Source of the DNA: Candidatus Zixiibacteriota bacterium
Lineage (GTDB): Bacteria; Zixibacteria; MSB-5A5; GN15; FEB-12
NCBI GenBank assembly: GCA_040752815.1
Contig: JBFMGC010000011.1
Location: forward strand, 6,352-70,351
Length of the DNA: 64,000 nt
Direction: 5' to 3'
Shown piece by piece: positions 7,209 to 33,606 of the stretch (position 1 is the first letter of the stretch; every line of letters begins with the position of its first letter). A program made the position numbers and the translations under genes. The notes under the pieces were generated by a model. It was not told the origin of the DNA, did no database searches, and saw nothing but the letters and a program-made list of their open reading frames with translations.

Positions 7209-7268
7209 AGTGTGTTTAATCCTCCAGTCGTATCGCCTTCAGTCGTCTTTATCAGTCGAGTACGCTTG

Positions 7269-15072: not shown

Positions 15073-15102
15073 CCCCGCGCCGGGGTCGGGCGCGGGGTTT
15101 AA
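15073..15102. terminator. Bidirectional intrinsic terminator between M28 peptidase gene and rpsT
   Basis: ccccgcgcc-ggggtcg-ggcgcgggg forms a 9-bp GC stem. It is followed by TTTAATT on the plus strand and by TTCTTTC on the minus strand. Confidence 0.7.
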
Positions 15103-15129
15103 TTGGTTGGGTGGCTCGATAATGAAAAG

Positions 15130-15384
15130 CTATGATAGCTTGGCGACAAACTGGGCCAGACGGGATTTATTTCGGGCGGCGGTGCGCTTATGAATGAGTC
15201 CGCTGCCGGCCGCTTTGTCGATAATTATCGTGGCTTCCTTGAACTTGAGGACAGCCTCGTCCTTTCGGGTTTCAACTCTAACGTCCTTGATGGCCTGACG
15301 CAGCCGCGAACGGAACGACCGGTTCCGGTTGCGTTCCGCCTCGGACGTCCTCATGCGCTTTTCGCACGACTTATGATTCGGCAA
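15130..15384 (-). CDS. rpsT: 30S ribosomal protein S20
   Basis: 84 aa. MPNHKSCEKRMRTSEAERNRNRSFRSRLRQAIK.. is the typical basic helical S20 N-terminus. Confidence 0.9.
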   Translation of the reverse strand: MPNHKSCEKRMRTSEAERNRNRSFRSRLRQAIKDVRVETRKDEAVLKFKEATIIIDKAAGSGLIHKRTAARNKSRLAQFVAKLS

Positions 15385-15445
15385 CTCTCATCCTTTCATG
15401 CTTCTGTGAACAACTCAACCATGGAATATAATCGGCGGGGCTGCT

Positions 15446-17014: not shown

Positions 17015-17030
17015 TTGTGAGCGGGGGACT

Positions 17031-19331: not shown

Positions 19332-19517
19332 TTAGTCTCAGAGCTCATGCGCCAAGGGATGTCGATTTAGCGTGCCATAGGGCGATCCTGCCCAACAGCG
19401 CCCCGGCTGGCTGCCCTTTCGCTTAAAGGAAAGCCCCTTTTGGCCCGATAACTATAAAGAATTGGCGTCAAAACAGGACCAGACTGCCTATCGAACTATG
19501 TCCAGGAAGTGACTAAG

Positions 19518-20729
19518 ATGAGTTTATCAGGTAATCTGAGAACAGTGGCGTTCCCCGACATCCTTCAGCTTCTTGCCACCGGCAAGAAAACCGGAATGCT
19601 GGAGTGCCGTACCACGACCCGCCAGAAGGAAGTTGCCTTCAAAGACGGCAATATCGTGTACGCGTCGTCGGTCAACAGCGCGGAGGATTTGCTCGGCAAC
19701 ATGCTGCTGAAACGGGGGCGGATTTCCAAGTCGGATCTCGAACGCGCGATCGGCCTGCACAAACAGACCGGCCGCCAGCTCGGCACGACCCTGATCGACA
19801 TGGGGCTGTTCGACAAGAATGAGATCGCCGAGTGCCTCAAGCTCCAGATCGAGGAGATCGTGTACAACCTGTTCTCGTGGCAGGAGGGCGATTTTGTCTT
19901 CCACGAGGGAGTCGCGCCGCGCAACGCGCCCTTTTTGATCGAGCTGGCCACCATGAACGTGATCATGGAGGGCACGCGCCGAATCGACGAGTGGATGGAG
20001 ATTCAGAAAGTACTTCCGGCCGACGACGTTCTGCTGCGCATCTCCAAGTCACCTAAGTCGAACCGAGAAGAACTGACCATTTCGATGGATGAGTTCCGCC
20101 TGCTGTCGCTCATCAACGGTGAACGAACCCTCCCCGAGCTGATCAATCTCTCGCCTATGGGCGAGTTCGTCACCTGCCGAGCGCTCTACCGTCTGATTGT
20201 CAATCACCTCGTTGAGGTGGCCGGCAAGAGCGAAAAGGCCCAGGATGCGGAACTCGAGGACGAGGAAGAGGCGGTGCTGGCGATTGTCTTCAAGCTGTAC
20301 TCAAATTGTTTCTATCAGGTGCACTCCCGCGTAGCCCAAATGCTGGGCGGCGAGAACACCAAGTACCCGTCGTTCGCATCGAAGTACCGCTCCGGCCTGA
20401 CCACGTTCTTCCCTGGGGTAGATCCCCGCTCCGACCTGATGCCGCCATTTGAAAAGTTTGTGGCGGCCGTGCGCTCCATGCCCGAACACATCCGCTATCA
20501 TCAGCTCATGGCCGGACTGGAGAGGATGCTTTCCGAGCAGCTCCTGTATGTCTACCAGCTTCTGGGCGACGGGGTCTTTCATGACACGATGACCAAAGTG
20601 AAAATGGAAATATCGGAACCGCTGGCCAGTCGGCGCGATCTGGTCAAACGGTACAACATCGAAGAAGATTTCTACGGTACGATCAAGCGTGCCGACAAAA
20701 TGGTGAAGCTTTTGAGGGGTTCGTTATGA
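19518..20729 (+). CDS. PATAN/DUF4388 domain protein
   Basis: The N-terminus SGNLRTVAFPDILQLLATGKKTGMLECRTTTRQKEVAFKDGNIVYASS matches the DUF4388 (PATAN) signature as I recall it. Start is set at the ATG at 19518, 8 nt after AGGAAG. The C-terminal ~200 aa is not recognised. Confidence 0.7.
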   Translation: MSLSGNLRTVAFPDILQLLATGKKTGMLECRTTTRQKEVAFKDGNIVYASSVNSAEDLLGNMLLKRGRISKSDLERAIGLHKQTGRQLGTTLIDMGLFDKNEIAECLKLQIEEIVYNLFSWQEGDFVFHEGVAPRNAPFLIELATMNVIMEGTRRIDEWMEIQKVLPADDVLLRISKSPKSNREELTISMDEFRLLSLINGERTLPELINLSPMGEFVTCRALYRLIVNHLVEVAGKSEKAQDAELEDEEEAVLAIVFKLYSNCFYQVHSRVAQMLGGENTKYPSFASKYRSGLTTFFPGVDPRSDLMPPFEKFVAAVRSMPEHIRYHQLMAGLERMLSEQLLYVYQLLGDGVFHDTMTKVKMEISEPLASRRDLVKRYNIEEDFYGTIKRADKMVKLLRGSL

Positions 20730-21088
20730 AGATGACCGGCATAACTACGTTGGTTCTGGTTTTTGGCCTGGTCGGCCGCAGCGAGGCGGCCAACCTGGGT
20801 GTGATTGTCAGCCCGCCGAATTTTCTGAGTCTGGTGGTGCTTGGCCTCGCGGTGGCGGCCATCGTGGTCGGCTTCCAGCTCTTGGGAGTCATTCGCGGAG
20901 GTTACCTTAGCCGGGCGTGGCAGATCTTTATCGCCGGTTTCGGCGTCCTGGCGCTCGCTCAAATCCTCACTCTGGTGCGGGTGACCGAGATTGCACCCAT
21001 CCCGGCCTGGGTGGCTCCGGCTTTGACGGCAATCGCCGCGGGAGTGTTCTTCTACGGAGTTTTCGAGACGAAAAAGGTCTTGAGCTGA
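20726..21088 (+). CDS. Small integral membrane protein (signal peptide + 3 TM)
   Basis: An ATGA start/stop overlap with the upstream gene suggests translational coupling. MKMTGITTLVLVFGLVGRSEA is followed by three hydrophobic helices. Confidence 0.6.
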   Translation: MKMTGITTLVLVFGLVGRSEAANLGVIVSPPNFLSLVVLGLAVAAIVVGFQLLGVIRGGYLSRAWQIFIAGFGVLALAQILTLVRVTEIAPIPAWVAPALTAIAAGVFFYGVFETKKVLS

Positions 21089-21099
21089 GTTTATTTGTG

Positions 21100-21128
21100 T
21101 TGACATAACCGCTTGGGAGATATATAAA
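21100..21128 (+). promoter_or_regulatory. Strong sigma70-like promoter inside the mgl/Roadblock cluster
   Basis: TTGACA (21100-21105), a 17-nt spacer, then TATAAA (21123-21128), 66 nt upstream of the TPR-Roadblock ATG. Confidence 0.5.
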
Positions 21129-21194
21129 TACCACAGCCCGGATTCGACCTCTCAGGCAACCGATTGATATTTCGGAAGTTACGAGCGGAAGCTA

Positions 21195-22064
21195 ATGACA
21201 GTCGACTTGGAAATCGATAATCGCATCACCAAGTGCCAGAAGATACTGGAGATGGATCCCAATTCGCAGATCTTCGCGGCGCTGGCGGAGGCGTACCGCA
21301 AAAAGGGCGAACTGGAAAAGGCGTTCCAGGTCTGTCACAATGGCCTGCGCCTGCATCCTAACTACGGCGCCGCCCACATGGTGATGGCCAGGGTCAACCT
21401 TGATCGCGGTCTCTACGATTGGGCTGAAGCCGAGTTGGAGAGGGCGCGGCAGGTCGACGGGAACAGCCGGACGATCGAACTCCTTCTGGCGGAGATCTAC
21501 ATATACAAGGGCGAGTACCAGGCCGCCATCCGCCTACTCAAGCGGCTCGCCGCATCCGATCCCGGCAACGATCATGTTCAGCGCCTGCTCGATATCGCTC
21601 TGCGCATTCCGCAGGAACAACAGGCTGAGCTTGGTGGCCCGGAGCCGGAACCGGAGCCGGTAAAACCTGAGCCGGTCACGCCGACTGCGCCCGTGCCAAG
21701 ACCCTTGGCTCCGACCCGCCTGAGTCCGGCTGAGATGCTGGCCGAATCGCTTCAGATAGGCGGTGTGGGCGGGGCGTTGTATGTCAATTCGGAAGGCTTG
21801 GTCCTCGAGACGAAGTGGAGTTCCAAAGCCGATCCGGCGGTATGTGGTGCGTCCATGGCTGAGGTCAGCAAGTTCCTCGACCAGGAGCTGATGAAGATTT
21901 CATTTGGCCGGGTTGGAGCAGTGCTTATCGAGACGGGTCGCCAGGTGTTCTATATCATCCGCGTAAGCGGCGGGATGTTTGTCATCATGAGCGACGCCAA
22001 CGTAAATCTCGGTTCGCTGCGAATGAGGATGGCCACGCTGGTCGAACGAGTGCAGATACTTTAG
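21195..22064 (+). CDS. TPR repeat - Pro-rich linker - Roadblock/LC7 domain fusion protein
   Basis: The N-terminus has about 3-4 TPR units (FAALAEAYRKKGELEKAFQVCHNGLRLHPN.., LLLAEIYIYKGEYQAAIRLLKRLAASDPGN). A PEPEPEPVKPEPVTP linker follows. The C-terminus GGVGGALYVNSEGLVLETKW...VLIETGRQVFYIIRVSGGMFVIMSDANVNLGSLRMRM is a Roadblock/LC7 pattern. Confidence 0.7.
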   Translation: MTVDLEIDNRITKCQKILEMDPNSQIFAALAEAYRKKGELEKAFQVCHNGLRLHPNYGAAHMVMARVNLDRGLYDWAEAELERARQVDGNSRTIELLLAEIYIYKGEYQAAIRLLKRLAASDPGNDHVQRLLDIALRIPQEQQAELGGPEPEPEPVKPEPVTPTAPVPRPLAPTRLSPAEMLAESLQIGGVGGALYVNSEGLVLETKWSSKADPAVCGASMAEVSKFLDQELMKISFGRVGAVLIETGRQVFYIIRVSGGMFVIMSDANVNLGSLRMRMATLVERVQIL

Positions 22065-22075
22065 GCAGGGCAGAT

Positions 22076-23059
22076 ATGGAAATGACCGGTCAGACTAACC
22101 GACGAATCATCATCTTCTCTTTGGGTGCGGTGATTGTACCTCTGGTGGTGTTTCCGTCCCGCCTCGGGACCGATATTGCCCGGGCCTCCCTGGTCAATGC
22201 GCTTTACGAACTGGTTTACTACGGCGTTGTGATATTCATATTCCACCGCAGTACCACGCTGCTTCGGCTGATTCAGGGAGCCGGGGTCTGTTTGATCTAC
22301 CGCCTCGCCCTCGGCGCAGTGTTCGGACTGCTGCTGGCGGCTGTCTATTCGCTGCAGACCAGGGTATCACTCACGCTGGGGATGTCCGGTTATCTCCCCG
22401 CTATACTGTTTCAAATAGCGCTGGCGCCGTTCGTGCTCAAGCCGGTGGTCGATCAGCTCTATGGTGATGAACCAGTACGGCGTCGGGCTGCCCCGCCAAT
22501 TCAGACCGACACGCGCGCGGAGTTTGTCCGCCCGGCACACGTTCCGGTCAAGCCTAAGGCGGCCCCGGAGGCGCCGAAGGTCCCGGCATTCGCGGCTGCC
22601 CGTAAACCCGATTCCGCAGCATACCACCGGAGTGCGGACTCCATGCGTGAACTTAACGGTTTCGATAGAGCCGTCTATTACCTTGGCGAACACAGCGCCG
22701 TGCAGCTGGCGACAATCGTGGACAGCGAGGGACTCACTCTGGGCAGCTTCAAGCGCGGTCAGGTCCGCCCTGAAGACTGGGCGCCGCTGGCTCTGCTGGT
22801 CGTGGGGGAGAGCGGCCAGGTGCTGGAGCGGGGGAATTTGGACGGTCTTGAAAAAGTCGACTTAATACTAAAAGATAAACGCCTGGTTGTGGCGCGGCCC
22901 GAGGGTCTCTACCTGATGGTCCTGGCCGAGCGCCACGATGATGACCTGCTCAACATCCGCATCAACCAGGCGCTGGAGATGATTAATAAGTTTGTCGCCG
23001 AGCGTTACGGCAATAAACTGCACCCGAACGCGGAGAGAGTTCATGTACCAAGTGCTTAG
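22076..23059 (+). CDS. Polytopic membrane protein with C-terminal Roadblock/LC7 domain
   Basis: About four N-terminal TM helices and a basic/Pro-rich linker. The C-terminus VQLATIVDSEGLTLGSF...KVDLILKDKRLVVARPEGLYLMVLAERHDDDLLNIRINQALEMI is a Roadblock pattern. Confidence 0.65.
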   Translation: MEMTGQTNRRIIIFSLGAVIVPLVVFPSRLGTDIARASLVNALYELVYYGVVIFIFHRSTTLLRLIQGAGVCLIYRLALGAVFGLLLAAVYSLQTRVSLTLGMSGYLPAILFQIALAPFVLKPVVDQLYGDEPVRRRAAPPIQTDTRAEFVRPAHVPVKPKAAPEAPKVPAFAAARKPDSAAYHRSADSMRELNGFDRAVYYLGEHSAVQLATIVDSEGLTLGSFKRGQVRPEDWAPLALLVVGESGQVLERGNLDGLEKVDLILKDKRLVVARPEGLYLMVLAERHDDDLLNIRINQALEMINKFVAERYGNKLHPNAERVHVPSA

Positions 23060-23384
23060 CGATCTCAATAAGACGCCCGGTGTGACCGGCTCAATGGTAG
23101 TCGGTAACGACGGTATCGTAATTGCCGCCGACATGGCGTCCGGTTTCGAGGGTGAGACAGTCGGCGCCCTGGCGGCGTCGATCACGTCCAACATCCAGAA
23201 ATCCCTGGACCGTTTGGACACCACGCCCTGGACTCAGGTGACAATAGAGGCGGACGATGCCAAGCTCTTCTTCACCGACGCCAGCCTGGGCATACTCGTG
23301 GTCACTACCGAAAAGGTGGTGAACATCGGGCTGATTCGTCTGGAGATACGAAACGCCATAGACAAGCTCAAGCTGTCGACCTGA
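23043..23384 (+). CDS. Roadblock/LC7 domain protein (MglC-like, stand-alone)
   Basis: Start is set at the ATG at 23043, a 17-nt overlap with the upstream gene. MYQVLSDLNKTPGVTGSMVVGNDGIVIAADM...TIEADDAKLFFTDASLGILVVTTEKVVNIGLIRLEIRNAI. Confidence 0.7.
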   Translation: MYQVLSDLNKTPGVTGSMVVGNDGIVIAADMASGFEGETVGALAASITSNIQKSLDRLDTTPWTQVTIEADDAKLFFTDASLGILVVTTEKVVNIGLIRLEIRNAIDKLKLST

Positions 23385-23412
23385 TCAGTCAGAGAATAGG
23401 ATTACTTTCTAT

Positions 23413-24471
23413 ATGGTCTCAATCAACTACTCGGCTCGTGAGGTATGCTGCAAAATTGTCTACTACGGACCGGGTTTATCCGGCAAGACGACCAACCTGC
23501 AGTATATCCACTCGAAGGTGCCGCAGAACACCCGGGGCAAGCTGATCTCGCTGGCCACCGAAGCCGACCGCACCCTGTACTTCGATTTCCTGCCCATCAA
23601 TATAGGCACGATCAACGATTTTCAGGCGAAGTTCCAGTTGTATACGGTGCCGGGACAGGTCTACTACAACGCTACCCGCAAGCTGGTGCTTCGAGGCGTG
23701 GACGGCCTGGTTTTTGTCGCCGACAGCCAGGCGGACAAGATGGATGAGAACATCGAGTCGCTGGCCAACCTCGAAGAAAACCTGCGCGAATACGGCTACG
23801 ATATCAATCAGTTGCCGCTGGTGCTGCAGTTCAATAAGCGTGACCTGCCGAACGTGCTGTCGGTTCAGGAACTCAACGCCCGTCTTAATCCCCGAGGCCT
23901 GCCTTTTTTCGAGGCCTCGGCGCCATCAGGAAAAGGAGTATTCGACACCCTCAAGTTGATCATAAAGCTGGTGCTGGACAAAGCCAAATCCGCCGGATCG
24001 TCGGCGATGAGCCAACGGGCAGCGCCGCCGCCAGCGGAAGCGGCGCCGTATCCATCCGGTGAGCGGGTGGCCGCCGCGCCGCAGCCGACCGCCGAGACAA
24101 TTCCGACTCGAACCGACTCGCCCCAGCCGGTAACCGCCGCACCCGACTGGAGAACCGCCGCGCAACCCGCGGCGAGTGAGTGGAACGCTCCGTCGCAGCC
24201 GACAGTGGCGGTAGCTCCCGATCCCGCGTTTCGTCCGTATCCGGGCAGTGATCGCCAGATGTCTGCGGAGCGTCGCACGGGCCGCGTGCCTGTCGTGTCC
24301 GCACCACGGGAGCTGCCGGCGGCATCATTAGAGAAAAACATCGGTTCCGATTCACGTGAGCACGCGACCGGCGCCGGTTCGATGAATACACCCCAGATGG
24401 CCCCCTCGCTCAGGCGTCGCGCCGCGAACAAGAAACGCAGCTTTTTCAAGCGCCTGTTCGGGATCAAATAG
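23413..24471 (+). CDS. mglA: MglA-type Ras-like GTPase with ~155-aa C-terminal low-complexity extension
   Basis: aa 1-195 are collinear with M. xanthus MglA as I recall it. Matching features are INYS.RE..CKIVYYGPGLSGKTTNLQYI (P-loop), ADRTLYFDFLP (intrinsic Arg), YTVPGQ (switch II), NKRD and GVFDTLK. A Pro/Ala-rich tail then ends in KKRSFFKRLFGIK. Confidence 0.88.
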   Translation: MVSINYSAREVCCKIVYYGPGLSGKTTNLQYIHSKVPQNTRGKLISLATEADRTLYFDFLPINIGTINDFQAKFQLYTVPGQVYYNATRKLVLRGVDGLVFVADSQADKMDENIESLANLEENLREYGYDINQLPLVLQFNKRDLPNVLSVQELNARLNPRGLPFFEASAPSGKGVFDTLKLIIKLVLDKAKSAGSSAMSQRAAPPPAEAAPYPSGERVAAAPQPTAETIPTRTDSPQPVTAAPDWRTAAQPAASEWNAPSQPTVAVAPDPAFRPYPGSDRQMSAERRTGRVPVVSAPRELPAASLEKNIGSDSREHATGAGSMNTPQMAPSLRRRAANKKRSFFKRLFGIK

Positions 24472-24489
24472 TTTTGCCTGGAGGACACT

Positions 24490-24975
24490 ATGTCTGACGA
24501 CAGTCTGATTATCTACGAAGAAGAAATAGCAACCATTGATGCACTTCTGAAGAAGATGCTCAAAGGGGCCGAGGCCAAGTGCGCTCTGCTGGTGGACAAG
24601 GACGGCCACCTGATCACGCGACAGGGCTTTACCCACTCGCTTGATACCACTGCGCTGGCGGCACTGCTGGCGGGCTCTTTCGCCTCGACCCGGGAAATCG
24701 CCCGGCTGGTCGGCGAATCCGAGTTTTCGGTGCTCTTCCACCAGGGTAAGAAAGACCACATCCACATGTCTATTGTGGGGGACCGCTCCATTCTTGTAGT
24801 TATATTCGACGATCGCACCACGATCGGTATGGTTCGCCTGTACGCCAAGGAGACGGCCGATGAGCTCGCCCGGGTGTTCAAGAACATCCGGGAGCGGAAA
24901 GAACCAGCCGAAGCGCTAAGCGGGGATTTCTCGGACAAGGCGCAGGAAAGGCTGAACGACATCTTCCAGGATTGA
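24490..24975 (+). CDS. mglB: MglB (Roadblock/LC7 GTPase-activating protein of MglA)
   Basis: LIIYEEEIATIDALLKKMLKGAEAKCALLVDKDGHLITRQG...LDTTALAALLAGSFA...HMSIVGDRSILVVIFDDRTTIGMVRLYAKETADEL closely parallels M. xanthus MglB as I recall it. A GGAGGA Shine-Dalgarno is present. Confidence 0.85.
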   Translation: MSDDSLIIYEEEIATIDALLKKMLKGAEAKCALLVDKDGHLITRQGFTHSLDTTALAALLAGSFASTREIARLVGESEFSVLFHQGKKDHIHMSIVGDRSILVVIFDDRTTIGMVRLYAKETADELARVFKNIRERKEPAEALSGDFSDKAQERLNDIFQD

Positions 24976-25052
24976 CCCCAGCCGCCGCCGGACCGAAAGT
25001 CCGGGAGGTCATTCAATAATACGAGGTCCTTTGCTGAAGTATTAGGCTGATT

Positions 25053-26750
25053 ATGTCTGCGGAACTTAGTGCCATTCTGGTAAAAGCGGGGAAGATCACC
25101 CAGGATCAGGCGAATGCGGCACTGGAACGTTCCAAACAGACCAAGGAAAAATTCTCCAAAGTCCTGGTTGACCTGGGGGCGGTCGCCTCGGAAGACGAGG
25201 TCATAAACTTTGTCGGCAAGCACCTTAAGATCGGTGCGCTGCGGCTGAGCGATGTCGAGCTCAACCCCGAAGTAGTCAAGCTCATCCCGCTCGATATCGC
25301 CCGCAAGTTCAAAGTCATCGCCATCAGCAAGATCGGCAAGACGCTGCTGGTGGCCATCAGCGACCCCAATAACATCTACGTACTCGACGCTATCAAGTTT
25401 ATCACCGGTTGCAATGTCCAGCCGGCGATCGCGCCCGAAAGAGAAATCGAGAAGGCGATCGAGCAATACTACGCCGACACCGGCGCCCTGTCTGAAATCG
25501 TCAAAGGTCTCGAAGACGATCCGGATCTCGAGGTCGTTTCCACCGAGGACATCCCCTCCGAGACCGACCTGATGTCTCAGATTCAGGACAAGCCTCTGGT
25601 CAAGCTGGTGGATTCGATCATCGGCGACGCCATCCGGATGGGGGCTTCCGATATCCACTTCGAGATGTACGAGAAGAAGATTCGCGTGCGCTACCGTATC
25701 GACGGCGAGCTTCAGGAGATGGCCCCGCTGCCCTTCAAATACCGCGCCGCCATCGTGTCGCGTATCAAGATTATGGCCGAACTGGACATTTCGGAACGTC
25801 GGTTACCCCAGGACGGGCGCATCAAGATCAAGATCACCGGTCGCACGGTCGACCTTCGTGTCTCGGTGCTGCCGACCATATTCGGCGAGAAGGTCGTAAT
25901 GCGAATTCTCGATCCGATGGCGCTGCGGATAGATATGACCCAGCTCGGTTTTCGCGAGCCCGACCTGGCTCGCTTCCATGAGCGCATTCACGCGCCGTTC
26001 GGCATTGTGCTGGTCACCGGCCCGACGGGTTCAGGTAAGACGACAACGCTGTACTCCGCGCTTCAGCAGTTGAATACAATCGATGTCAACATCATGACCG
26101 CCGAGGACCCGGTCGAGTTCAATTTCGAGGGGATTAATCAGGTAGCGGTCAAGCCGGACATCGGACTGACCTTCGCCAACGCCCTGCGCTCATTCCTTCG
26201 TCAGGACCCGGACATCATCATGGTCGGTGAGATTCGTGATAGTGAGACCGCCGAGATCGCCATCAAGGCGGCGCTCACGGGCCATCTCGTGTTTTCGACG
26301 CTGCACACCAACGACGCGCCCTCGTCGGTGACTCGTCTAATCGATATGGGTACGCCCAATTACCTCGTGGCGTCGGCCACGCAGCTCATCATGGCCCAGC
26401 GCATGGTCAAAAAGATCTGCCAGAAGTGTAAGGAAGAGGTCAACCTGACCGCAGAGCAAGTGGAAGCGCTCAAGATGGGGCCGGAGATGCTCAAGGGTAT
26501 TCGCGCGTTCCGGGGGAAAGGGTGCAGCGCCTGCAACAACACCGGCAAGTCGGGCCGAACGGGTATCTATGAGGTAATGCCGGTAACTCCGGCTATCGAA
26601 GAGATGATCCTCAAAAAGGCTGCCGATTCCGCCATTAGAAAAGTCGCGATGGACGAGGGGATGTTCTCGCTGCGCATGGCGGCGGTGGACAAGATGAAGC
26701 AGGGCGTCATCAGTATCGACGAAGTTTTCTCTGTGACCGGTACGAACTAA
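25053..26750 (+). CDS. pilB: Type IV pilus assembly (extension) ATPase PilB / GspE family
   Basis: N-terminal T2SSE_N-type domain. Walker A GPTGSGKTTTLYS, Asp box, Walker B/His box (IIMVGEIRD, GHLVFSTLHTND) and a tetracysteine CQKC..CSAC. Confidence 0.9.
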   Translation: MSAELSAILVKAGKITQDQANAALERSKQTKEKFSKVLVDLGAVASEDEVINFVGKHLKIGALRLSDVELNPEVVKLIPLDIARKFKVIAISKIGKTLLVAISDPNNIYVLDAIKFITGCNVQPAIAPEREIEKAIEQYYADTGALSEIVKGLEDDPDLEVVSTEDIPSETDLMSQIQDKPLVKLVDSIIGDAIRMGASDIHFEMYEKKIRVRYRIDGELQEMAPLPFKYRAAIVSRIKIMAELDISERRLPQDGRIKIKITGRTVDLRVSVLPTIFGEKVVMRILDPMALRIDMTQLGFREPDLARFHERIHAPFGIVLVTGPTGSGKTTTLYSALQQLNTIDVNIMTAEDPVEFNFEGINQVAVKPDIGLTFANALRSFLRQDPDIIMVGEIRDSETAEIAIKAALTGHLVFSTLHTNDAPSSVTRLIDMGTPNYLVASATQLIMAQRMVKKICQKCKEEVNLTAEQVEALKMGPEMLKGIRAFRGKGCSACNNTGKSGRTGIYEVMPVTPAIEEMILKKAADSAIRKVAMDEGMFSLRMAAVDKMKQGVISIDEVFSVTGTN

Positions 26751-26911
26751 CACTCTCCAGGCTTTATCGTCCCCCCCAGAATCATTTGCCCGTCAATCAC
26801 TTAAACCGGCCTACCGGCACTTTGGCGGTCAAGATTCTGCTCTGATTACCGATAACAGACAGAGAACAACTTTGGGAGTCAAAACCGCTTTCGCAGAAAG
26901 AGGAGTTCTCG

Positions 26912-27988
26912 ATGGTCTCGTTGCGCGAATTGCTGGAACAGATGGTTCGAATGGGTGCATCGGATCTGCACCTCACCGCCGGATCCCCGCCCGTGGTGCG
27001 GGTTGACGGTAAACTTCAGCGAATGCCTTATGACATGCTCACCAGTGAGGAAACGAAGAAGATTGCCTATTCGATGCTCAACGAGAAACAGAAGCTAAAA
27101 TTCGAACAGAATTGGGAGCTTGATTTTTCTTTCGGTATCGAATCAATGAGCCGGTTCCGCGCCAACATCTTCATGCAGCGTGGCAACGCGGCAGTCGCTC
27201 TGCGCCAGATTCCCTATGAGATCAAGACTTTTGAGCAGCTTGGTCTGCCTAAAGTGATATCGGATTTCGCCAAGTTGCCGCGTGGCCTCGTACTCGTGAC
27301 TGGCCCGACCGGCTCCGGTAAATCGACCACGCTCGCGGCCGTAATCGACAAAGTCAATAAAGAGCGCCCGGTGCACATAATCACGGTGGAAGATCCGATC
27401 GAATACCTGCACCGCCACCAGATGGCGCTCATAAACCAGCGCGAGGTATACTCGGATACGCCGTCGTTCGCGTCCGCACTGAAGTACGCCCTACGCGAGG
27501 ACCCGGACGTGGTCCTGGTGGGTGAGATGCGTGACCTGGAGACGATCGAATCGGCGCTCTCGATATCGGAGACCGGCCACCTGGCTTTCGCCACGCTGCA
27601 CACCAACTCGTGCGCGGAGACGATCAACCGAATTGTGGACGTCTTCCCGACCAATCAGCAGGAGCAGATTCGGGTGACGCTGTCGTTCACGCTGCAGGCC
27701 GTGGTGTCACAGGTTTTGATACCGAAAATCGGCGGCGGGCGGGTGCTCGCCATGGAAATCATGATTGCCACGCCGGCGGTCAGAGCGATCATCCGCGATG
27801 ACAAGATCCATCAATTGTACTCGATGATCCAGTCCGGCCAAAAATACGGAATGAAGACGATGAATCAGTCGCTGGCCGAGCTGTACCAGGCCGGTAAGAT
27901 TTCCATCAACGATGCCATGGGCACCAGCCACAACCAGCAGGAGCTGAGCGAAATGCTCTCGCGGCAGAAAGCGCCGGCCTACGCCTGA
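26912..27988 (+). CDS. pilT: Twitching-motility (retraction) ATPase PilT
   Basis: GASDLHLTAGSPPVVRVDG, GPTGSGKSTTLAA, VLVGEMRDLETI, GHLAFATLHTNS and an AIRNLIRE-like AVRAIIRDDKIHQ motif. 358 aa. Confidence 0.9.
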   Translation: MVSLRELLEQMVRMGASDLHLTAGSPPVVRVDGKLQRMPYDMLTSEETKKIAYSMLNEKQKLKFEQNWELDFSFGIESMSRFRANIFMQRGNAAVALRQIPYEIKTFEQLGLPKVISDFAKLPRGLVLVTGPTGSGKSTTLAAVIDKVNKERPVHIITVEDPIEYLHRHQMALINQREVYSDTPSFASALKYALREDPDVVLVGEMRDLETIESALSISETGHLAFATLHTNSCAETINRIVDVFPTNQQEQIRVTLSFTLQAVVSQVLIPKIGGGRVLAMEIMIATPAVRAIIRDDKIHQLYSMIQSGQKYGMKTMNQSLAELYQAGKISINDAMGTSHNQQELSEMLSRQKAPAYA

Positions 27989-28027
27989 GGCGGCGTGCTG
28001 AGATCGGAATGAGAAAGGAATACTGAT

Positions 28028-29227
28028 ATGCCAGTTTTCGAGTACAAGGGCAAGACCCTGGCCGGGGCCGCAGTCCAGGGCACCATGAAGGCCAACACCC
28101 GCGCCGATCTGGAGCGAGTGCTGCGCCAGAACCGGATCATGGTGGTATCGATAAACAAAAAGGCCGCCGAGATCGATATCAAATTTGGCACCGGCATCAA
28201 GAGGGTCGAAATATCCCGCTTCACACGCCAGTTCTCGACCATGATTGGGGCCGGCCTGCCCATGGTGCAGTGTCTCGAAATCCTGGGCGCCCAGACCGAG
28301 AACAAGGAACTGGCGAAGGTAATCAACCAGGTCCGCGAGGCTGTACAGGGCGGCGCAACCCTCTCCGATGCGATGAAGCGGCATCCGAAAATATTCGATG
28401 AGCTCTACACCAACATGGTGGAGGCCGGTGAAGTCGGCGGAGCGCTCGATACCATCCTGGTCCGCCTTGCGGTCTACCGCGAAAAGGCCGACCAGCTCAT
28501 TCGCAAGGTCAAAGGCGCCATGGTATACCCGAGCGTCGTTATGATTGTCGCCGCCCTGGTCACATTTGGTATGTTGACCTTTATCGTGCCGGTGTTCGCC
28601 AAGATGTTCGCCGGACTCGGTGCTGAGCTTCCCGAGCCCACCAAAGTGGTGCTGGCGATATCGCACTTCCTGAGTTCAAACATCCTATACCTGTTCTTTG
28701 GGTCGGTTGGTCTGCTGGCGGTGTTCCTTTATTGGAAACGCACCCCCAGCGGCGGTATGGCGGTGGACAAGGCTATGCTGCGGATTCCGGTCCTCGGTAA
28801 TCTGGTCAGGAAATCGTCAGTGGCGCGTTTCACCCGCACACTGGCGACACTTCTGGCCTCAGGCGTTTCGATTCTGGAAGCCCTTGACATCACCGCCAAG
28901 ACGGCGGGCAACAAAGTCGTGGCGCGGGCGATTAACCGCTCGGTCGTGGCCATCGCTGAGGGCGATACCATCACCGGACCGTTGAAGACGTCCGGCGTCT
29001 TCCCGCCAATGGTAATCCAGATGATCGGCGTCGGCGAAAAGACCGGCGGCCTGGACGAGATGTTGAACAAGATCGCCGACTTTTACGACGAGGAAGTAGA
29101 CGCGGCCGTGAGCGCGCTGACCTCGGTGATCGAGCCGGTGATCATCGTGTTCATGGGCATTGTGATCGGCGGCATTATGATCGCGATGTATCTGCCGATG
29201 TTCGACATAATTGGAAAGTTCAACTGA
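28028..29227 (+). CDS. pilC: Type IV pilus platform protein PilC / GspF family
   Basis: Two GspF repeats (FTRQFSTMIGAGLPMVQCLEIL.. and FTRTLATLLASGVSILEALDI..). Three TM segments. 399 aa. Confidence 0.9.
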   Translation: MPVFEYKGKTLAGAAVQGTMKANTRADLERVLRQNRIMVVSINKKAAEIDIKFGTGIKRVEISRFTRQFSTMIGAGLPMVQCLEILGAQTENKELAKVINQVREAVQGGATLSDAMKRHPKIFDELYTNMVEAGEVGGALDTILVRLAVYREKADQLIRKVKGAMVYPSVVMIVAALVTFGMLTFIVPVFAKMFAGLGAELPEPTKVVLAISHFLSSNILYLFFGSVGLLAVFLYWKRTPSGGMAVDKAMLRIPVLGNLVRKSSVARFTRTLATLLASGVSILEALDITAKTAGNKVVARAINRSVVAIAEGDTITGPLKTSGVFPPMVIQMIGVGEKTGGLDEMLNKIADFYDEEVDAAVSALTSVIEPVIIVFMGIVIGGIMIAMYLPMFDIIGKFN

Positions 29228-29298
29228 TCGCGTGGCGCTTTCGGTTGCGTTCAAGTAAGTGAGTCAGGCGGCCCGCCACGGCGGGCCGTTTGCCGTAT

Positions 29299-31011
29299 AT
29301 GGATAGTACTTCTGCGCCTCAAAGACTCGGCTTGTTTCTGCCGCTGCGACTGGCCACCTATGTGGTCCTGATCGCTATTGTCGTTGCCTGGATGCACTAC
29401 CCCCGGTATCTGCACTTTCAGGTCATCCTCTACTCGTTCGTGACGTTGGCGTTCGCGATCAGTCTCGCGCTGGAGAAAAGGTCTCGTCTGACCCGGGTGA
29501 CTCAGGTACTGATTGCTCTGCAGTTCCTGCTCGAAATCACGCTGGAGACCGGGATAATTTTCGTCACCGGCAATCTGCACTCGCCGTTTTCAGCCCTTTT
29601 TGTCCTTACTATCGTATCGGCGGCGCTGGCCTACCGCGTGGCCGGCACCCTGGTGGTGGCGTCAGTGGTGTCGGCCGCTTACGTTCTTGCCATCTGGCTT
29701 GGATTGAGTAACGTCGCCGGTCAGTTCAGTGTCAAGGTTTTCGAGACCATCTTCTCCTCGAACGATTTGGCGTTCTACGGTATCCTTCTGCACCTGCTCG
29801 TTTTCTATCTTACGGCATTCATATCCGGCTATCTGGCCGAACGGCTCAGTCACCAGGAGCGCCAGTTGCACGACGCTTCCAGCGCGCTCAAGCGGGCGCG
29901 GCTCGAAACGGATGACATCCTGCGGCACCTCAATTCCGGCCTGCTGACGGTCGATGCCGCCGGCCGCATCATATACTTCAACCGCGCGGCGGAACGGATT
30001 CTCGGCTACACCGAAGAAAACGTCAAGGGGATGCCCTGCACCGAGGTGTTCTCGGAGCGGATGCCGGAGCTGGCCGCCTGCCTGATGACCGGGGTACTAT
30101 CGCGATCAAGCTACCCGCGGAGGGAGCTGGAAATTGTCGATACCAGCAACCGGCGTGTGCCGGTGGGGCTGTCCACCTCGATACTTACCGAGGACTTCGG
30201 CGAACTTCGCGGCGTGATCGCCATATTCTCGGACCTGACCGAGGCCAAGGAACTCGAGCAGAAAGTCCGCAACAGCGACCGACTGGCCGCAGTGGGCGAG
30301 CTTTCGGCCTCGATCGCTCACGAAATACGCAACCCCCTAGCGGCCATATCGGGGTCGGTTGAAGTCCTGCAAAAGGAGCTTCAGCTTGACGGAGAAAACC
30401 ACCGGCTCATGGCCCTGATCACCAAGGAATCCCAGCGGCTCAATAAGATCCTCAGCGATTTCCTGACTTACGCCCGCATGGGGCGCCCCGCTTACAATAA
30501 AGTAGAACTCTGCCACGTGGTCGCCGACATCCGCGAGCTTTTGCGACGCCACGAGGCGGTGGCGGACAACATTACGCTTGGGTTCGAGACCGATGAATCG
30601 ATCGCCTATGTTTTCGGCGATGAGGACCTGATCCGGCAACTGCTTATGAATCTGGCCATCAATGCCTGCGAGTCGTTTGATGGCCGTCCCGGGGATGTGA
30701 CCTTTCGCCTGGAGCGCGGCCCGGGTGAAAATGTGATCCGCTTGAGCGTTGGCGACAACGGCCCCGGTATCGAACCGAGGCTGCAGGAGAAGATCTTCCA
30801 GCCATTTTACTCCACCAAGAAATCAGGAACCGGCCTGGGTCTTGCCATAGTCCATCGTATTTGCAATGCGCTGCGCTTGCGCCTCGACCTGGATAGCCTT
30901 CCCGGCGAAGGAACCACCTTTACGGTTTGGTTCAGCAGTTACACGCTGGGCCGTTCGATTGCGCCCGGCCTGACCCCTACCGATGAGCGCGCTTCAGTTG
31001 CGCCGTTCTAA
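29299..31011 (+). CDS. PilS-like membrane sensor histidine kinase (multi-TM - PAS - HisKA - HATPase)
   Basis: About six N-terminal TM helices and a PAS segment (LLTVDAAGRIIYFNRAAERILGY). H-box SASIAHEIRNPL, N-box LMNLAINACES, G1 VGDNGPGI, G2 GTGLGLAIV. No response regulator is adjacent. Start is ATG 29299 or TTG 29290. Confidence 0.8.
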   Translation: MDSTSAPQRLGLFLPLRLATYVVLIAIVVAWMHYPRYLHFQVILYSFVTLAFAISLALEKRSRLTRVTQVLIALQFLLEITLETGIIFVTGNLHSPFSALFVLTIVSAALAYRVAGTLVVASVVSAAYVLAIWLGLSNVAGQFSVKVFETIFSSNDLAFYGILLHLLVFYLTAFISGYLAERLSHQERQLHDASSALKRARLETDDILRHLNSGLLTVDAAGRIIYFNRAAERILGYTEENVKGMPCTEVFSERMPELAACLMTGVLSRSSYPRRELEIVDTSNRRVPVGLSTSILTEDFGELRGVIAIFSDLTEAKELEQKVRNSDRLAAVGELSASIAHEIRNPLAAISGSVEVLQKELQLDGENHRLMALITKESQRLNKILSDFLTYARMGRPAYNKVELCHVVADIRELLRRHEAVADNITLGFETDESIAYVFGDEDLIRQLLMNLAINACESFDGRPGDVTFRLERGPGENVIRLSVGDNGPGIEPRLQEKIFQPFYSTKKSGTGLGLAIVHRICNALRLRLDLDSLPGEGTTFTVWFSSYTLGRSIAPGLTPTDERASVAPF

Positions 31012-31083
31012 TCCATTTGGCCTTGATTTCGGCCCCCGGATGTATAAGTTGGAGTCTCGATTTTACCGGGAATGGAGTAACGA

Positions 31084-32883
31084 ATGCGCGTTTGTGTTGG
31101 CCTCGGCCTGACGTTGGTGACTTGCAGCCTGATTTTCAGCGGTTGCGGGGGTCCGCCGCCGGTCGGATGGGACACTCTCGAGCGCCTCAATTACAACGTG
31201 GTCGAAGCCGAGCCGGGCCTTAGAATTCCGGCCAAGCACCTCTATGAGTTGATCTATTTCAGCCGCGTGTCCTCGGTCGGCGGGCCGGTCTCCGATTCTG
31301 TAATTCAGGCATTTCGGGACAGCGTGACAGTTGACACGTTGATCGGTCTGACCGTTGACGAATTCGAGCTCGGCAAGCACTGGTACCAGTACCGCGAATA
31401 TCGTGACCGCACCAACGCCGCTCTGGAGCACCTGTTCTGGACGAACCAGGTCGGGTCGACAATTGCGATCGACTCGCAGGAGGTAATCGACTACTACCAC
31501 AGCCACGCCGAGGAATTCTCGCTGCCGGAACAGGTGAACATCTATCACATTCTAAGCAGTCCACTCGGGTTTCGCCAGGGACGAGACTCGCTGCTGGTGG
31601 CGCGCTTCACGCGTGAGGACCTCGATGCTTTCGCCGAAGTGTTCGTTCATCGGCTCTATCAATTACTGGAGTACGGCGAGCCATTCCAGAACGTAGCGTT
31701 CAATTTCTCACACGATGTCATGTCTCGCGAGAAGGGGGGACATCTGGGGTGGACACGACGCGGAGTTTACGTGGACCCGTTCGATTCAATCGCCTTCTCG
31801 CTGCAGGATGGCGAGTACTCGGTGCCGTATAAGGATGCCGACGGATGGCATATGCTCTACCGGGCGGCTTATAATCCCGGCGGTCCCCAGCCGCTGGATT
31901 CGTCATGGGTATACACCAGAGCGTACAATGCGGTTTTCAACATAAAAGGCTCGGGCCGGGCGAACCGGATTGTGGACAGCCTTCGTAGCGCCGCCGTATT
32001 CGAGTACAACGACCTGTTGCTGACCGATACGATTGTTCATCTCGTGGCGGATTCGGTTTGGGCGGCGGTTGTCAATAAGACCGACACGGTTGATTTTTTC
32101 CGGCTGAAGGGACTCGAGGACGACTACCGCAAGAGCTATCAGGTCAGCAACACTACTCCGGATATGCGTCGCCTTATGGTGATGCACGCGGCCGGCCCGC
32201 TCATAATCGTGCAGGCCGCCCGCAGCCTGGGGCTGGACACGCTCCCCAATCATCGGGCCACCGAGCGCCAGGTCTGGCGCGAAACTGTGAAAGCCCTGCG
32301 CCTGGCCTTGCTTTACAATCCTGACACCTGGGCGCCCAGCGATTCGGCCGTCGCGCAGTACTATCAAGAACATTACCACGTGTTCAACCCGCCTCTGTTC
32401 ATTCGCGCCGAGCAGCTCCTGGTGCAGGAAGAAGAGCTGGCTCATTTCCTGCGCGAGCAGATACAATCGGGATTCACGCTGCCCTACCTGGCTGAATACT
32501 ACGGCAGGGAAGAGGGGTATTCGGTTATCTATGAAAACATGGGCGTAGTTAAAGAGGGCTCGGTCGACCCAGTCTTGTTCGACGCGCTTCGGCGCACGCA
32601 CGCCAGTCGGGTAACCAAGGTCGTGAGAACACCGCGCGGCTATCATATCGCCAGAGTGTTGGAACGGGAGTATCCGCAGTCGCTGGACATGGCGGCGGGA
32701 GCGATTCGCAGCTTGCTGATCGAGCAGTATCGGCGGCAAAAGTGGTTCGATTTCCGCGATGAACTATTTCGCAAGCAGCAGGTGCGGTTTCCGGGAGTGC
32801 TTCCGCCGTTCGAGCTTCCGCGCCTCTCCCAGAGGAATCACCCGCGTACCCTGCCCAGACCAAGCAGTGACTCCTACTTCTGA
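31084..32883 (+). CDS. SurA/PrsA-like peptidyl-prolyl cis-trans isomerase lipoprotein (two parvulin-type domains)
   Basis: Lipobox LIFSGC-GG. Parvulin-like segments IYHILSS..GGHLGWTRRGVYVDPFDSIAFSLQDGEYSVPYKDADGWHMLY and IRAEQLLV..VVRTPRGYHIARVLE. Confidence 0.7.
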   Translation: MRVCVGLGLTLVTCSLIFSGCGGPPPVGWDTLERLNYNVVEAEPGLRIPAKHLYELIYFSRVSSVGGPVSDSVIQAFRDSVTVDTLIGLTVDEFELGKHWYQYREYRDRTNAALEHLFWTNQVGSTIAIDSQEVIDYYHSHAEEFSLPEQVNIYHILSSPLGFRQGRDSLLVARFTREDLDAFAEVFVHRLYQLLEYGEPFQNVAFNFSHDVMSREKGGHLGWTRRGVYVDPFDSIAFSLQDGEYSVPYKDADGWHMLYRAAYNPGGPQPLDSSWVYTRAYNAVFNIKGSGRANRIVDSLRSAAVFEYNDLLLTDTIVHLVADSVWAAVVNKTDTVDFFRLKGLEDDYRKSYQVSNTTPDMRRLMVMHAAGPLIIVQAARSLGLDTLPNHRATERQVWRETVKALRLALLYNPDTWAPSDSAVAQYYQEHYHVFNPPLFIRAEQLLVQEEELAHFLREQIQSGFTLPYLAEYYGREEGYSVIYENMGVVKEGSVDPVLFDALRRTHASRVTKVVRTPRGYHIARVLEREYPQSLDMAAGAIRSLLIEQYRRQKWFDFRDELFRKQQVRFPGVLPPFELPRLSQRNHPRTLPRPSSDSYF

Positions 32884-33499
32884 GCATACCACGGCCGGTG
32901 AGATCCCCTTCTCCCAGGAACTCTGGCGGAAAGGGACTCACATGGCAGCCCTCGTGATCCCGACGGGCTATTATGTCCTCGGACTGTCTCCCCGCCAGGC
33001 CCTGGCCATTCTGATCCCGATCGCGCTGGCGATGCTCCTGATCGATATCTCGCGCCTTCGTCAATGGGCCTTCTGGCGGAATTTCGCCTCGCGGATTGGC
33101 GGCCAAATGGTGCGCGGTCATGAGCAGCTCGGCGATTTCACCGGCGCCACGTACATTCTCATCTCAGTGTGTATGACTATTGCGATGTACAGCAAGCCGG
33201 TGGCGATCGCCGCGATCGCGTTCATCATAGTCGGCGATACCTTCGCCGCCCTGGTCGGACGCAAGTTCGGCCGGCACCGGTTTGGGCGCAAATCTGTCGA
33301 GGGTTCCGTGGCGTGCCTGGTAGGCACGGCTCTGGTCGCAGTGCTTGCGCCTGGTTTGACTTTGACGGTCGCTTTGGTGGGGGCGACTGTGGCCACGATC
33401 ACCGAAGCAGTCTCGCTCAAAGTAGACGATAACATCAGCGTGCCGATTGTCTCAGGTCTGGCGATGACATTACTCCAGAGGATACTCGAAAGCAGCTGA
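32867..33499 (+). CDS. CTP-dependent polyprenol/diacylglycerol kinase-like (CdsA/dolichol kinase superfamily) membrane protein
   Basis: ELWRKGTHMAALVIP at the N-terminus and GDTFAALVGRKFGRHRFGRKSVEGSVACLVGTALV, the cytidylyltransferase-family motif. The start is uncertain; GTG 32867 is chosen, a 17-nt overlap with the upstream gene. Confidence 0.6.
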   Translation: MTPTSEHTTAGEIPFSQELWRKGTHMAALVIPTGYYVLGLSPRQALAILIPIALAMLLIDISRLRQWAFWRNFASRIGGQMVRGHEQLGDFTGATYILISVCMTIAMYSKPVAIAAIAFIIVGDTFAALVGRKFGRHRFGRKSVEGSVACLVGTALVAVLAPGLTLTVALVGATVATITEAVSLKVDDNISVPIVSGLAMTLLQRILESS

Positions 33500-33606
33500 C
33501 AGAATTCAACCGCGCATCTAACTCTTTTGGATACAACAAGTTGCGCGGCTTCCGTTCGGCTATGTTCAGAACTCTGCGTAGTGGACCGATTTTCTTCAAG
33601 ATTTTG

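Follow-up and report, generated by a model that had tools for sequence, protein, structure and literature searches.

A Roadblock-rich MglA/MglB gene block joined to type IVa pilus motor genes in Zixibacteria, a candidate membrane-associated GTPase switch

Layout of the block, its conservation and its promoter

We analysed a stretch of 64,000 nucleotides (the window) from contig JBFMGC010000011.1 of a Candidatus Zixiibacteriota bacterium (assembly GCA_040752815.1), in which eleven co-oriented plus-strand genes of the open reading frame (ORF) listing occupy positions 19518-31011. The first seven form an MglA/MglB-Roadblock-PATAN-TPR (tetratricopeptide repeat) block, named here g1 to g5, mglA and mglB, which is physically joined to pilB, pilT and pilC, as the original prediction had proposed, and is followed by the gene of a PilS-like sensor kinase. 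The features of this run are as follows.

19518-20729, plus strand: g1, PATAN/DUF4388 protein of 403 amino acids from an ATG start, with a GTG at 19509 (Pfam PF14332, 1.4e-32)
20726-21088, plus strand: g2, small membrane protein of 120 amino acids (hydropathy, sequence and conserved position)
21100-21128, plus strand: sigma70-type promoter (sequence, and conservation in orthologous spacers)
21195-22064, plus strand: g3, TPR-Roadblock fusion of 289 amino acids (TPR_19, 1.1e-15; Roadblock from orthologues and family profile)
22076-23059, plus strand: g4, membrane-anchored Roadblock protein of 327 amino acids (AlphaFold2 (AF2) model, Foldseek and hydropathy)
23043-23384, plus strand: g5, stand-alone Roadblock protein of 113 amino acids (Robl_LC7, 3.5e-14)
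23413-24471, plus strand: mglA, whole ORF of 352 amino acids (the core matches MglA of Myxococcus xanthus)
23413-23997, plus strand: G-domain core of MglA, residues 1-195 (canonical group 1 MglA)
23998-24429, plus strand: hypervariable Ala/Pro/Ser/Arg-rich linker of MglA, residues 196-339 (column frequencies across orthologues)
24430-24471, plus strand: polybasic amphipathic tail of MglA, KKRSFFKRLFGIK, residues 340-352 and the stop codon, a candidate membrane-targeting sequence (MTS) (conservation and likeness to MinD)
24490-24975, plus strand: mglB, Roadblock protein of 161 amino acids (2e-38 to M. xanthus MglB)
25053-26750, plus strand: pilB, type IVa pilus extension ATPase of 565 amino acids (TIGR02538)
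26912-27988, plus strand: pilT, retraction ATPase of 358 amino acids (TIGR01420)
28028-29227, plus strand: pilC, inner-membrane platform protein of 399 amino acids (T2SSF)
29290-31011, plus strand: PilS-like sensor histidine kinase of 573 amino acids (6TM_PilS, PAS, HisKA and HATPase_c in Pfam)

Compared with the ORF coordinates, the eleven-gene order and the gaps and overlaps reported before proved exact. The genes g1 and g2 share an ATGA overlap at 20726, g3 and g4 are separated by 11 nucleotides (22064 to 22076), g4 and g5 overlap by 17 nucleotides (23043-23059), and gaps of 28, 18 and 77 nucleotides lie between g5 and mglA, mglA and mglB, and mglB and pilB, respectively. The further gaps are of 106 (g2-g3), 161 (pilB-pilT), 39 (pilT-pilC) and 62 nucleotides (pilC-pilS). 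The run in the same direction exceeds these eleven genes, with murJ (15446-17014) and comEC (17031-19331) upstream and a gene for a 599-residue PpiC rotamase (31084-32883) downstream. The GC content of the region is flat, at about 0.57-0.59, and therefore gives no sign of a foreign insert or of a join.

The conservation of the block was examined by neighbourhood look-ups of g4 homologues at 61%, 44%, 40% and about 30% identity, by a scan with the MglA core that took one genome from each GTDB species and returned 80 loci, about 75 of them from Zixibacteria, and by tblastn of 14 window proteins against these 80 loci. The order comEC-g1-(g2)-g3-g4-g5-mglA-mglB-pilB-pilT-pilC-pilS, on one strand, is found in essentially every sufficiently long Zixibacteria contig. 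About 75 species-level Zixibacteria genomes contain the colinear block, some of them as closed chromosomes or megabase contigs, and it is therefore not an assembly join; the linkage to pilBTC is shared by the relatives and not peculiar to the present contig. The deepest branches, whose g4 is about 30% identical, retain g1 through pilB, while their pilT and pilC are relocated and ATP synthase or capsule genes stand in their place. Throughout the Zixibacteria loci pilB follows mglB.

Across the loci, the median junctions are 2 nucleotides for g1/g2, 13 for g3-g4, −17 for g4/g5 (75 loci), 27 for g5-mglA and 17 for mglA-mglB (76 loci), and the g2-g3 spacer has a median of 108 nucleotides (10th-90th percentile, 98-115). 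The gene g2 is found at the same position in 52 loci; in the deep branches the ORF at this place is comparable in size and not detectably similar. Synteny within the phylum extends to rpsT-murJ-comEC upstream and to ppiC downstream. The PilS-like kinase is conserved at its position in most Zixibacteria loci. No response regulator adjoins its gene, the next one encoding the PpiC rotamase, which has three such domains, and the pilS-ppiC pairing is kept in many Zixibacteria loci. Several block-bearing records are titled 'uncultured Ignavibacteriales/Ignavibacteria', and single ones Acidoferrum, Deferrimicrobium or Calditrichaeota (L007-L078); these are likely to be mislabelled bins or contaminating contigs.

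The promoter listed above consists of TTGACA (21100-21105), a 17-nucleotide spacer and TATAAA (21123-21128), which match the consensus at 11 of 12 positions. The −10 hexamer ends 66 nucleotides before the start codon of g3, within the g2-g3 spacer. An automated promoter scan omits this site only because it requires the sixth base of the −10 hexamer to be T. We scored 51 distinct orthologous spacers of Zixibacteria by their matches to TTGACA-N16-18-TATAAT over the 12 positions. At least 10 matches were present in 46 of the 51, compared with 4 of 51 shuffled sequences, and 12 spacers were perfect; in the 46, the −10 hexamer ends 45-78 nucleotides, mostly 61-78, before the g3 start. In an alignment of 52 spacers the columns of TTGACA are conserved at 90% or more. 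On the other hand, the sigma70-like scores of the comEC-g1, mglB-pilB, pilB-pilT, pilC-pilS and pilS-ppiC spacers were no different from those of shuffled sequence, and no convincing plus-strand intrinsic terminator was found in any spacer of the block.

From this conservation, we judge the promoter at 21100 to be real, serving g3 through mglB and possibly extending beyond into pilB, and we propose that g1 and g2 form a separate, translationally coupled pair. A single strong internal promoter had been predicted at 21100; the site stands, and it is the only conserved sigma70 site of the run, but the unit probably has at least two promoters. Two further elements were considered in the 5′ untranslated region of g3 and rejected. 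For an RNA element, RNAalifold gave no consensus structure, the single-sequence z-scores were about 0, and Rfam returned no credible match in 15000-33500. For a GTAAC...GTTAC inverted-repeat operator, the repeat is exact in only 1 of 47 species. A minus-strand ORF of 144 amino acids (20672-21106) overlaps g2 and the promoter region; as the frame that is conserved is that of g2, this ORF is probably spurious.

Roadblock, PATAN and pilus motor proteins

All the domain assignments of the original prediction hold in profile and structure searches, including the two weak Roadblock calls, those of g3 and g4. The g3 protein has about 3-4 TPRs at residues ~8-140, a Pro/Glu-rich linker and a Roadblock domain at residues ~178-289 (nucleotides 21726-22061). 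In the window protein this domain scores 16.5 bits, below the Pfam threshold. Among the orthologues, 10 of 13 match Robl_LC7 (best 7.1e-10), the family profile matches the solved Asgard Roadblock protein 7yh1_D (PDB) at 2.3e-11, and hhalign aligns the g3 family with the g5 family at 99.2% (E 1e-19).

The g4 protein presents 4-5 transmembrane helices (residues 5-129), a disordered linker (130-190) and a C-terminal Roadblock domain (~195-311). It gave no match in Pfam. Its C-terminal profile aligns with g5 and g3 at 95.8-97.8% (hhalign), and an AF2 model built with 49 diverse homologues has a mean pLDDT (predicted local distance difference test) of 81, above 90 in both folded parts, with a C-terminal domain of the order alpha-beta-beta-alpha-beta-beta-beta-alpha. 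In Foldseek searches of the PDB, the modelled domain retrieves Roadblock folds with a TMt of about 0.8 and an E-value of 4e-8. The protein has about 99 homologues, and the named ones all come from Zixibacteria or GN15. The third protein, g5, matches Robl_LC7 directly, and its best relatives in the PDB are the Asgard Roadblock proteins 7yh1 and 7f8m. By profile and/or fold, the C-termini of g3 and g4 and the whole of g5 belong to the Roadblock/LC7 family (mutual hhalign values, 95.8-99.2%).

MglB of the window aligns with M. xanthus MglB (6izw_B) at 2e-38 over residues 5-160 against 4-158, that is, almost to its C-terminus. It matches Robl_LC7 at 2.7e-14, and the NCBIfam equivalog NF052242 at 94.9, below the cut-off of 200. 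This full-length similarity to a characterised MglB is that expected of a Roadblock GTPase-activating protein (GAP). In established systems MglB is the GAP of MglA, and we infer that it acts in this way on the adjacent MglA. The presence of four Roadblock domains round one MglA, namely TPR-fused in g3, transmembrane-fused in g4, stand-alone in g5, and MglB, is thus borne out by profiles, AF2 and Foldseek. With regard to a possible MglC, the PDB sequence matches of g5 at E-values up to 1 include no MglC chain; MglC itself is highly divergent, with less than 9% identity to MglB according to a published abstract, so that the lack of a match is weak evidence.

The PATAN protein g1 matches PF14332 with 112.7 bits (cut-off 25) over residues 7-162 of the 406-residue GTG-start ORF. 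The PATAN domain covers residues ~1-160, with an inserted alpha-helical 'alpha-clip' at 58-110 (nucleotides 19689-19847), and the match together with this insertion places g1 in the PATAN (DUF4388/PatA_N) family. The insert matches the GSPII helices of MshE and PilF, scores 46 bits with NCBIfam NF053729 (cut-off 38), and in the AF2 model superposes on cyclic di-GMP-bound MshE (5htl_B) with 37% identity and a root-mean-square deviation of 0.8 Å over 54 residues; its 24+5+24 motif frame is exact. The likeness of the PATAN insert to the N1 repeats of PilB/GspE has already been published (bioRxiv 10.1101/2021.06.11.447907). In g1 both guanine-stacking arginines are replaced, by Leu58 and Gln87, position 24 of motif 1 holds His81, and Lys or Arg occurs at position 11. 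Gln87 and His81 do not vary among 44 g1 sequences, and Leu58 hardly does. With both Arg and one Gln replaced, the insert fails even the relaxed published pattern of an MshEN-type receptor, and binding of cyclic di-GMP by g1 is doubtful on sequence grounds.

The remaining helical region of g1 (residues ~165-403, about 240 residues) is modelled confidently by AF2, and Foldseek finds no PDB match for it. Confidence is low in the PATAN part of the model, probably because the alignment is shallow, g1 being 70-90% identical across Zixibacteria. No receiver (REC) domain was found in g1 (no Response_reg match in Pfam and NCBIfam scans), and as a PatA-type response regulator it lacks the C-terminal REC domain. 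The cyanobacterial PatA-type (PATAN-REC) regulators PixE, PixG, LsiR and PilG likewise have a PATAN domain with the alpha-clip insertion and are tied to PilB/PilC and membrane-localised; g1 differs from them in having no REC domain and in its C-terminal region without a PDB relative. In those regulators PATAN is the output domain, binding the N-terminal domains of PilB1 and of PilC, and it is membrane-localised through an unidentified partner (bioRxiv 10.1101/2021.06.11.447907). The input of g1 would presumably be the GTPase and not a chemosensory phosphorelay. The neighbouring g2 has a signal-peptide-like N-terminus and about 3 transmembrane helices by hydropathy scan, and no family in the Pfam and NCBIfam scans.

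The motor proteins were assigned from family profiles. PilB matches TIGR02538, an equivalog, with 701 bits (cut-off 675.65), T2SSE at 1.8e-137 and MshEN at 4.4e-20, and PilT matches the subfamily TIGR01420 with 501 bits (cut-off 319). PilC has two T2SSF domains (4.9e-68) and scores 490 with NF052606, the Myxococcus-type PilC, below the equivalog cut-off of 700. The three are type IVa motor proteins on these matches. The MshEN cyclic di-GMP motif at the N-terminus of PilB (residues 1-60, 25053-25230) is degenerate, with Glu and Ser for the Arg and Gly of RLG, and scores 34.8, below the cut-off of 38; it is more degenerate than the homologous insert of g1.

The long MglA and its C-terminal tail

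The core of MglA matches M. xanthus MglA at 1.8e-81 over residues 3-197. It has the motifs of group 1, i.e. GxxxxGK[ST], a Thr for Asp in the switch-II TxxGQ, Gln82, the Arg53 finger and NKxD, and in 79 MglA orthologues the P-loop residues G19, G21, G24, K25, T26 and T27, together with R53, T78, Q82 and NKxD, are invariant. A cognate mglB lies 18 nucleotides downstream. At 352 residues, and 324-480 across Zixibacteria, the protein is outside the range of a small single-domain GTPase (150-240 residues in the reference survey). By its sequence, the core is thus a member of the group 1 family and the architecture is a variant.

The difference is a 157-residue extension beyond the core, which the original prediction had not mentioned. 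In the linker the frequency of the commonest residue averages 0.27 over residues 196-318, compared with 0.84 in the core. About 8-12 residues before the tail lies a P-x-MAPS motif (residues 327-332, 24391-24408), conserved at 71-97% per conserved position, which could be a short linear binding motif. Despite the variable linker, the polybasic tail KKRGFFKRLFGIK is conserved; its final 13 residues are kept in frame throughout 79 orthologues, with the consensus KKRGFFKRLFG-x-K at 73-96% per position. In deep Zixibacteria branches, the tail takes the variant forms KKKKKFFLFRWFSR and KKKSGLFGWLKRKRK.

The MTS of E. coli MinD is KGFLKRLFGG (PMC5471200). Among the C-terminal amphipathic MTS of MinD, FtsA and MreB, that of MinD has the same terminal position and nearly the same sequence as the tail of MglA (KGFLKRLFGG and KRGFFKRLFGIK, respectively), and the hydrophobic moments are 0.45 for MinD and 0.44 for MglA. 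The tail has the sequence features of a MinD-type MTS, that is, a short amphipathic helix at the extreme C-terminus with a basic and aromatic/aliphatic pattern. It differs from that of MinD in two ways: the protein that carries it is a Ras-like GTPase, joined to it by a linker of about 140 residues, and an extra polybasic run precedes it. We consider that this tail probably binds the membrane. In a full-text literature search, no paper was found linking MglA to an amphipathic helix, a membrane-targeting sequence, a polybasic tail or a tail anchor; the predicted tethering is a well-founded inference and, as far as we found, new to the literature. Together with the transmembrane-anchored Roadblock protein g4, the tail suggests that the switch works at the inner membrane.

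Profile hidden Markov models of the 7 families were searched against the non-Zixibacteria loci, and two neighbourhood look-ups were added. The modules found outside the phylum are the following.

L085 and L086, Planctomycetota: PATAN, TPR-Roadblock, Roadblock, MglA with a transmembrane tail, MglB
L083, Nitrospinia: TPR-Roadblock, Roadblock, long MglA, MglB (partial module)
L080 (Fibrobacteria) and L088: PATAN, two Roadblock proteins, MTS-tailed MglA, MglB
L087: TPR protein, PATAN, MTS-tailed MglA, long MglB-like protein; the module immediately follows pilN, pilO and pilin genes

No pilB lies within 10 kb in the L080, L083 and L085-L088 loci. In L080, L085 and L086, mglA follows PATAN and Roadblock genes. 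The Planctomycetota MglA proteins (L085, 10001-10999; L086, 10001-11023) have a hydrophobic transmembrane tail anchor, and that of Fibrobacteria L080 (10001-11722) ends in KKKGLFGGLFGKEK after a linker of about 370 residues. Among the loci compared, the transmembrane domain of g4, g2, and the fusion of the module to pilB-pilT-pilC-pilS are found only in Zixibacteria. In the unrelated lineages of L087 and L088, an rpsT gene is again found upstream, no more than a few genes away from the MglA module, so that the association recurs.

A profile search with the full-length MglA over 1.8 billion representatives was also made, and the best 150 matches were taken. All of them are 255-717 residues long, and many have amphipathic or transmembrane tails; in crude classes defined by regular expression and hydropathy, 31 are MTS-like, 19 transmembrane and 100 other. 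Because the query was full-length, this list is biased to long proteins and gives no frequency estimate. The survey of prokaryotic small GTPases in which the MglA groups were defined left out sequences above 240 residues (PMC4316618); a class of long, membrane-tailed MglA would have been left out with them.

We therefore put forward, tentatively and at somewhat less than even odds, the idea that the long MglA proteins are a multi-phylum class of membrane-tethered Ras-like switches. Such a protein would combine a canonical G domain with a disordered linker of hypervariable sequence and, at the C-terminus, an anchor, which would be a MinD-like helix in Zixibacteria and in a Fibrobacteria locus and a transmembrane tail in Planctomycetota; it would be encoded with 2-4 Roadblock proteins and PATAN, and would be wired to the pilus motor in Zixibacteria. 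In design, this class might be the closest bacterial counterpart of Ras/Rho anchoring and of Ragulator-type platforms.

Candidate control of the pilus motor and alternative explanations

Nearly all that is known of the control of type IV pili by MglA/MglB comes from Myxococcus, in which RomR/RomX are needed for recruitment to the pole. We know of no membrane-anchored Roadblock protein in the M. xanthus system. With the polarity module of that species (MglA, MglB, MglC, RomR/RomX and RomY, with SgmX, FrzS and SopA on PilB), the block has in common the catalytic residues of MglA, the full-length match of MglB, extra Roadblock paralogues and a TPR protein, and the output shared with the pilus branch is, by analogy, plausibly the recruitment of PilB. 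The two differ in several respects. The M. xanthus genes are reportedly dispersed, unlike the single block joined to pilBTC described here, and M. xanthus MglA is a soluble protein of 195 residues, whereas that of the window has 352 and a MinD-like tail. SgmX has 14 TPRs and no Roadblock domain, in contrast to the 3-4 TPRs fused to a Roadblock domain in g3, and sopA is not in an operon (PMC11580455). The switch had been called complete, which overstates it: no partner of the RomR/RomX/RomY type and no guanine nucleotide exchange factor (GEF) was identified, none having been searched for genome-wide, no receiver-domain match was found in the Pfam-scanned window ORFs in and around the block, and g5 shows no specific similarity to MglC.

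Neighbourhoods with PATAN beside mglA/mglB were described by Makarova et al. 2006 and by Wuichet & Sogaard-Andersen 2014, there as an occasional proximity; the multi-Roadblock content, the membrane tails and the linkage to pilB do not appear in these descriptions, as far as the available parts of the two papers go. Actinobacterial conservons (CvnA-D) are likewise operons with an MglA-family GTPase, a Roadblock protein and a membrane sensor kinase. They differ in having another MglA group and no PATAN, TPR or pilus genes, and the kinase of the present block is PilS-like and lies downstream of pilC.

We propose, with a probability of roughly 0.68, that the block encodes a membrane-associated MglA switch controlling the adjacent type IVa pilus motor. 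MglA would be held on the inner membrane by its tail. As their genes overlap, g4 probably pairs with g5, which would give a Roadblock platform fixed in the membrane near the pilus base, which g3 and/or MglB dimers could join laterally, as MglC does with MglB in Myxococcus. The role of the platform would be to place MglA and/or its GAP close to the pilus base. MglA-GTP would then engage the PATAN protein g1 as well as g3, which would take the part of SgmX, and so license the docking of PilB on PilC and pilus extension, until GTP hydrolysis stimulated by MglB turns the site off. Precedents exist for the separate steps: MglA with the TPR protein SgmX recruits PilB (PMC11580455), the Roadblock proteins MglC and MglB form a RomR/MglC/MglB complex by lateral assembly (PMC10329633), and PATAN genes are reported near mglA and mglB in a genomic survey (PMC4316618). 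Any single pairing within the module is much less certain than the proposal as a whole.

Several points weigh against this proposal. All the pairings are taken from gene order and analogy. Membrane binding of MinD depends on ATP-driven dimerisation, and a single MinD-type helix binds membranes weakly in MinD monomers; the tethering of a monomeric MglA may therefore require help from the polybasic stretch or from partner proteins. The sequence of g5 does not support its being an MglC orthologue, and no sigma70-like site or terminator was found in the block spacers that settles the co-transcription of pilB. Since the wider region is also syntenic, the conserved adjacency could in part reflect inherited synteny and not selection for linkage. 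Finally, the modules of Planctomycetota, Fibrobacteria and Nitrospinia stand without pilB, and the ancestral output need not have been the pilus motor.

The last two points are those on which the best-surviving alternative draws. It holds that the module is a general polarity or envelope switch, for gliding, the division site or pole identity, and that the adjacency of pilB is inherited synteny only, rpsT, murJ, comEC and ppiC being equally syntenic round the block. M. xanthus MglA also controls gliding (PMC4508894). However, the mglB-pilB junction is kept in the deepest branches though everything downstream of pilB is replaced, PATAN domains bind PilB and PilC where tested (bioRxiv 10.1101/2021.06.11.447907), and the L087 module directly follows pilus genes. 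We regard this explanation as unlikely.

A less probable alternative still, for which we would give poor odds, is that the block is chiefly a natural-competence unit, which places or activates DNA-uptake pili working with ComEC instead of steering twitching. In many bacteria DNA uptake is powered by type IV pili, and comEC precedes g1 in nearly all Zixibacteria loci, the deep branches included. Nevertheless, the comEC-g1 spacer is long (median 123 nucleotides) and without a conserved promoter signal, comEC is tightly coupled to murJ (median 9 nucleotides) and not to g1, and motility would account just as well for a retraction ATPase and a PilS-like sensor. As it also acts through PilB, competence would be a variant of the switch proposed above.

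The block had further been likened to the eukaryotic Ragulator-Rag architecture. In common are a Roadblock platform at the membrane and, as with the hypervariable anchors of Ras and Rho, a GTPase whose disordered, hypervariable C-terminus ends in a polybasic anchor; there is no lipid modification, no LAMTOR1-like subunit, no Roadblock domain on MglA and no Rag heterodimer. It is highly improbable that the block is a related scaffold, with a membrane-anchored stack of Roadblock heterodimers as GEF or platform of a nutrient- or signal-sensing GTPase: four Roadblock domains per GTPase with one membrane anchor, a TMt of 0.77-0.85 between the g4 domain and LAMTOR2/p14, and weak Pfam matches to LAMTOR5 and MAPKK1_Int, below threshold, speak for it, but LAMTOR2/p14, MglB and the Roadblock proteins of Streptomyces and Asgard all fit the same model to about the same degree, at 13-19% identity, MglA belongs to the monomer type of GTPase, the anchor is a transmembrane domain fused to the Roadblock domain and not a lipidated wrapping subunit, and a classical MglB GAP is present. 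On the models, the resemblance is one of fold and design, an analogy and not a specific homology.

The arrangement had been thought to be experimentally uncharacterised, and in our literature search no paper was found describing the MglA/MglB-Roadblock-PATAN block joined to pilBTC. Its elements are already known singly: MglA/MglB, extra Roadblock paralogues, a TPR effector, the binding of PATAN to PilB, and the proximity of PATAN and mglA genes. Not found described are the phylum-wide block joined to the motor, the predicted TPR-Roadblock and transmembrane-Roadblock fusions and, above all, the long MglA with its putative MinD-like or transmembrane anchor. The Zixibacteria block is a compact set of candidate parts by which a small GTPase may act on the pilus motor, and it ties the so far unexplained genomic association of PATAN and MglA to the interaction of PATAN with PilB and PilC in cyanobacteria. 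The MglA tails and the transmembrane-Roadblock protein suggest a membrane-based, and not cytosolic, switching in many bacteria, which parallels the anchoring of eukaryotic small GTPases. Although it comes from sequence inference in an uncultured phylum, this should surprise specialists of bacterial polarity. As the proteins of the module are small and suited to heterologous reconstitution, these ideas are testable without cultivating Zixibacteria.

Other features of the window lie outside the block. A second type IV pilus cluster is encoded about 17 kb downstream (47597-53746, plus strand), with the following genes.

47597-48124, plus strand: pilin-like gene with an N-terminal methylation motif
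48425-49483, plus strand: pilM
49480-50229, plus strand: pilN
50243-50869, plus strand: pilO
50885-52432, plus strand: ORF of 515 amino acids, no family, at the place that pilP has in many pil clusters
52451-53746, plus strand: short secretin of 431 amino acids

Just upstream of murJ there is an ORF of 84 amino acids (15130-15384, minus strand), at the place where relatives encode ribosomal protein S20. At 5799-8636 (minus strand), a multihaem cytochrome of 469 amino acids with MtrC/MtrF-like domains adjoins an outer-membrane beta-barrel of the Alginate_exp type, and a second, small multihaem cytochrome is encoded at 35948-36586 (plus strand); the cytochromes and the beta-barrel resemble a porin-cytochrome electron conduit.

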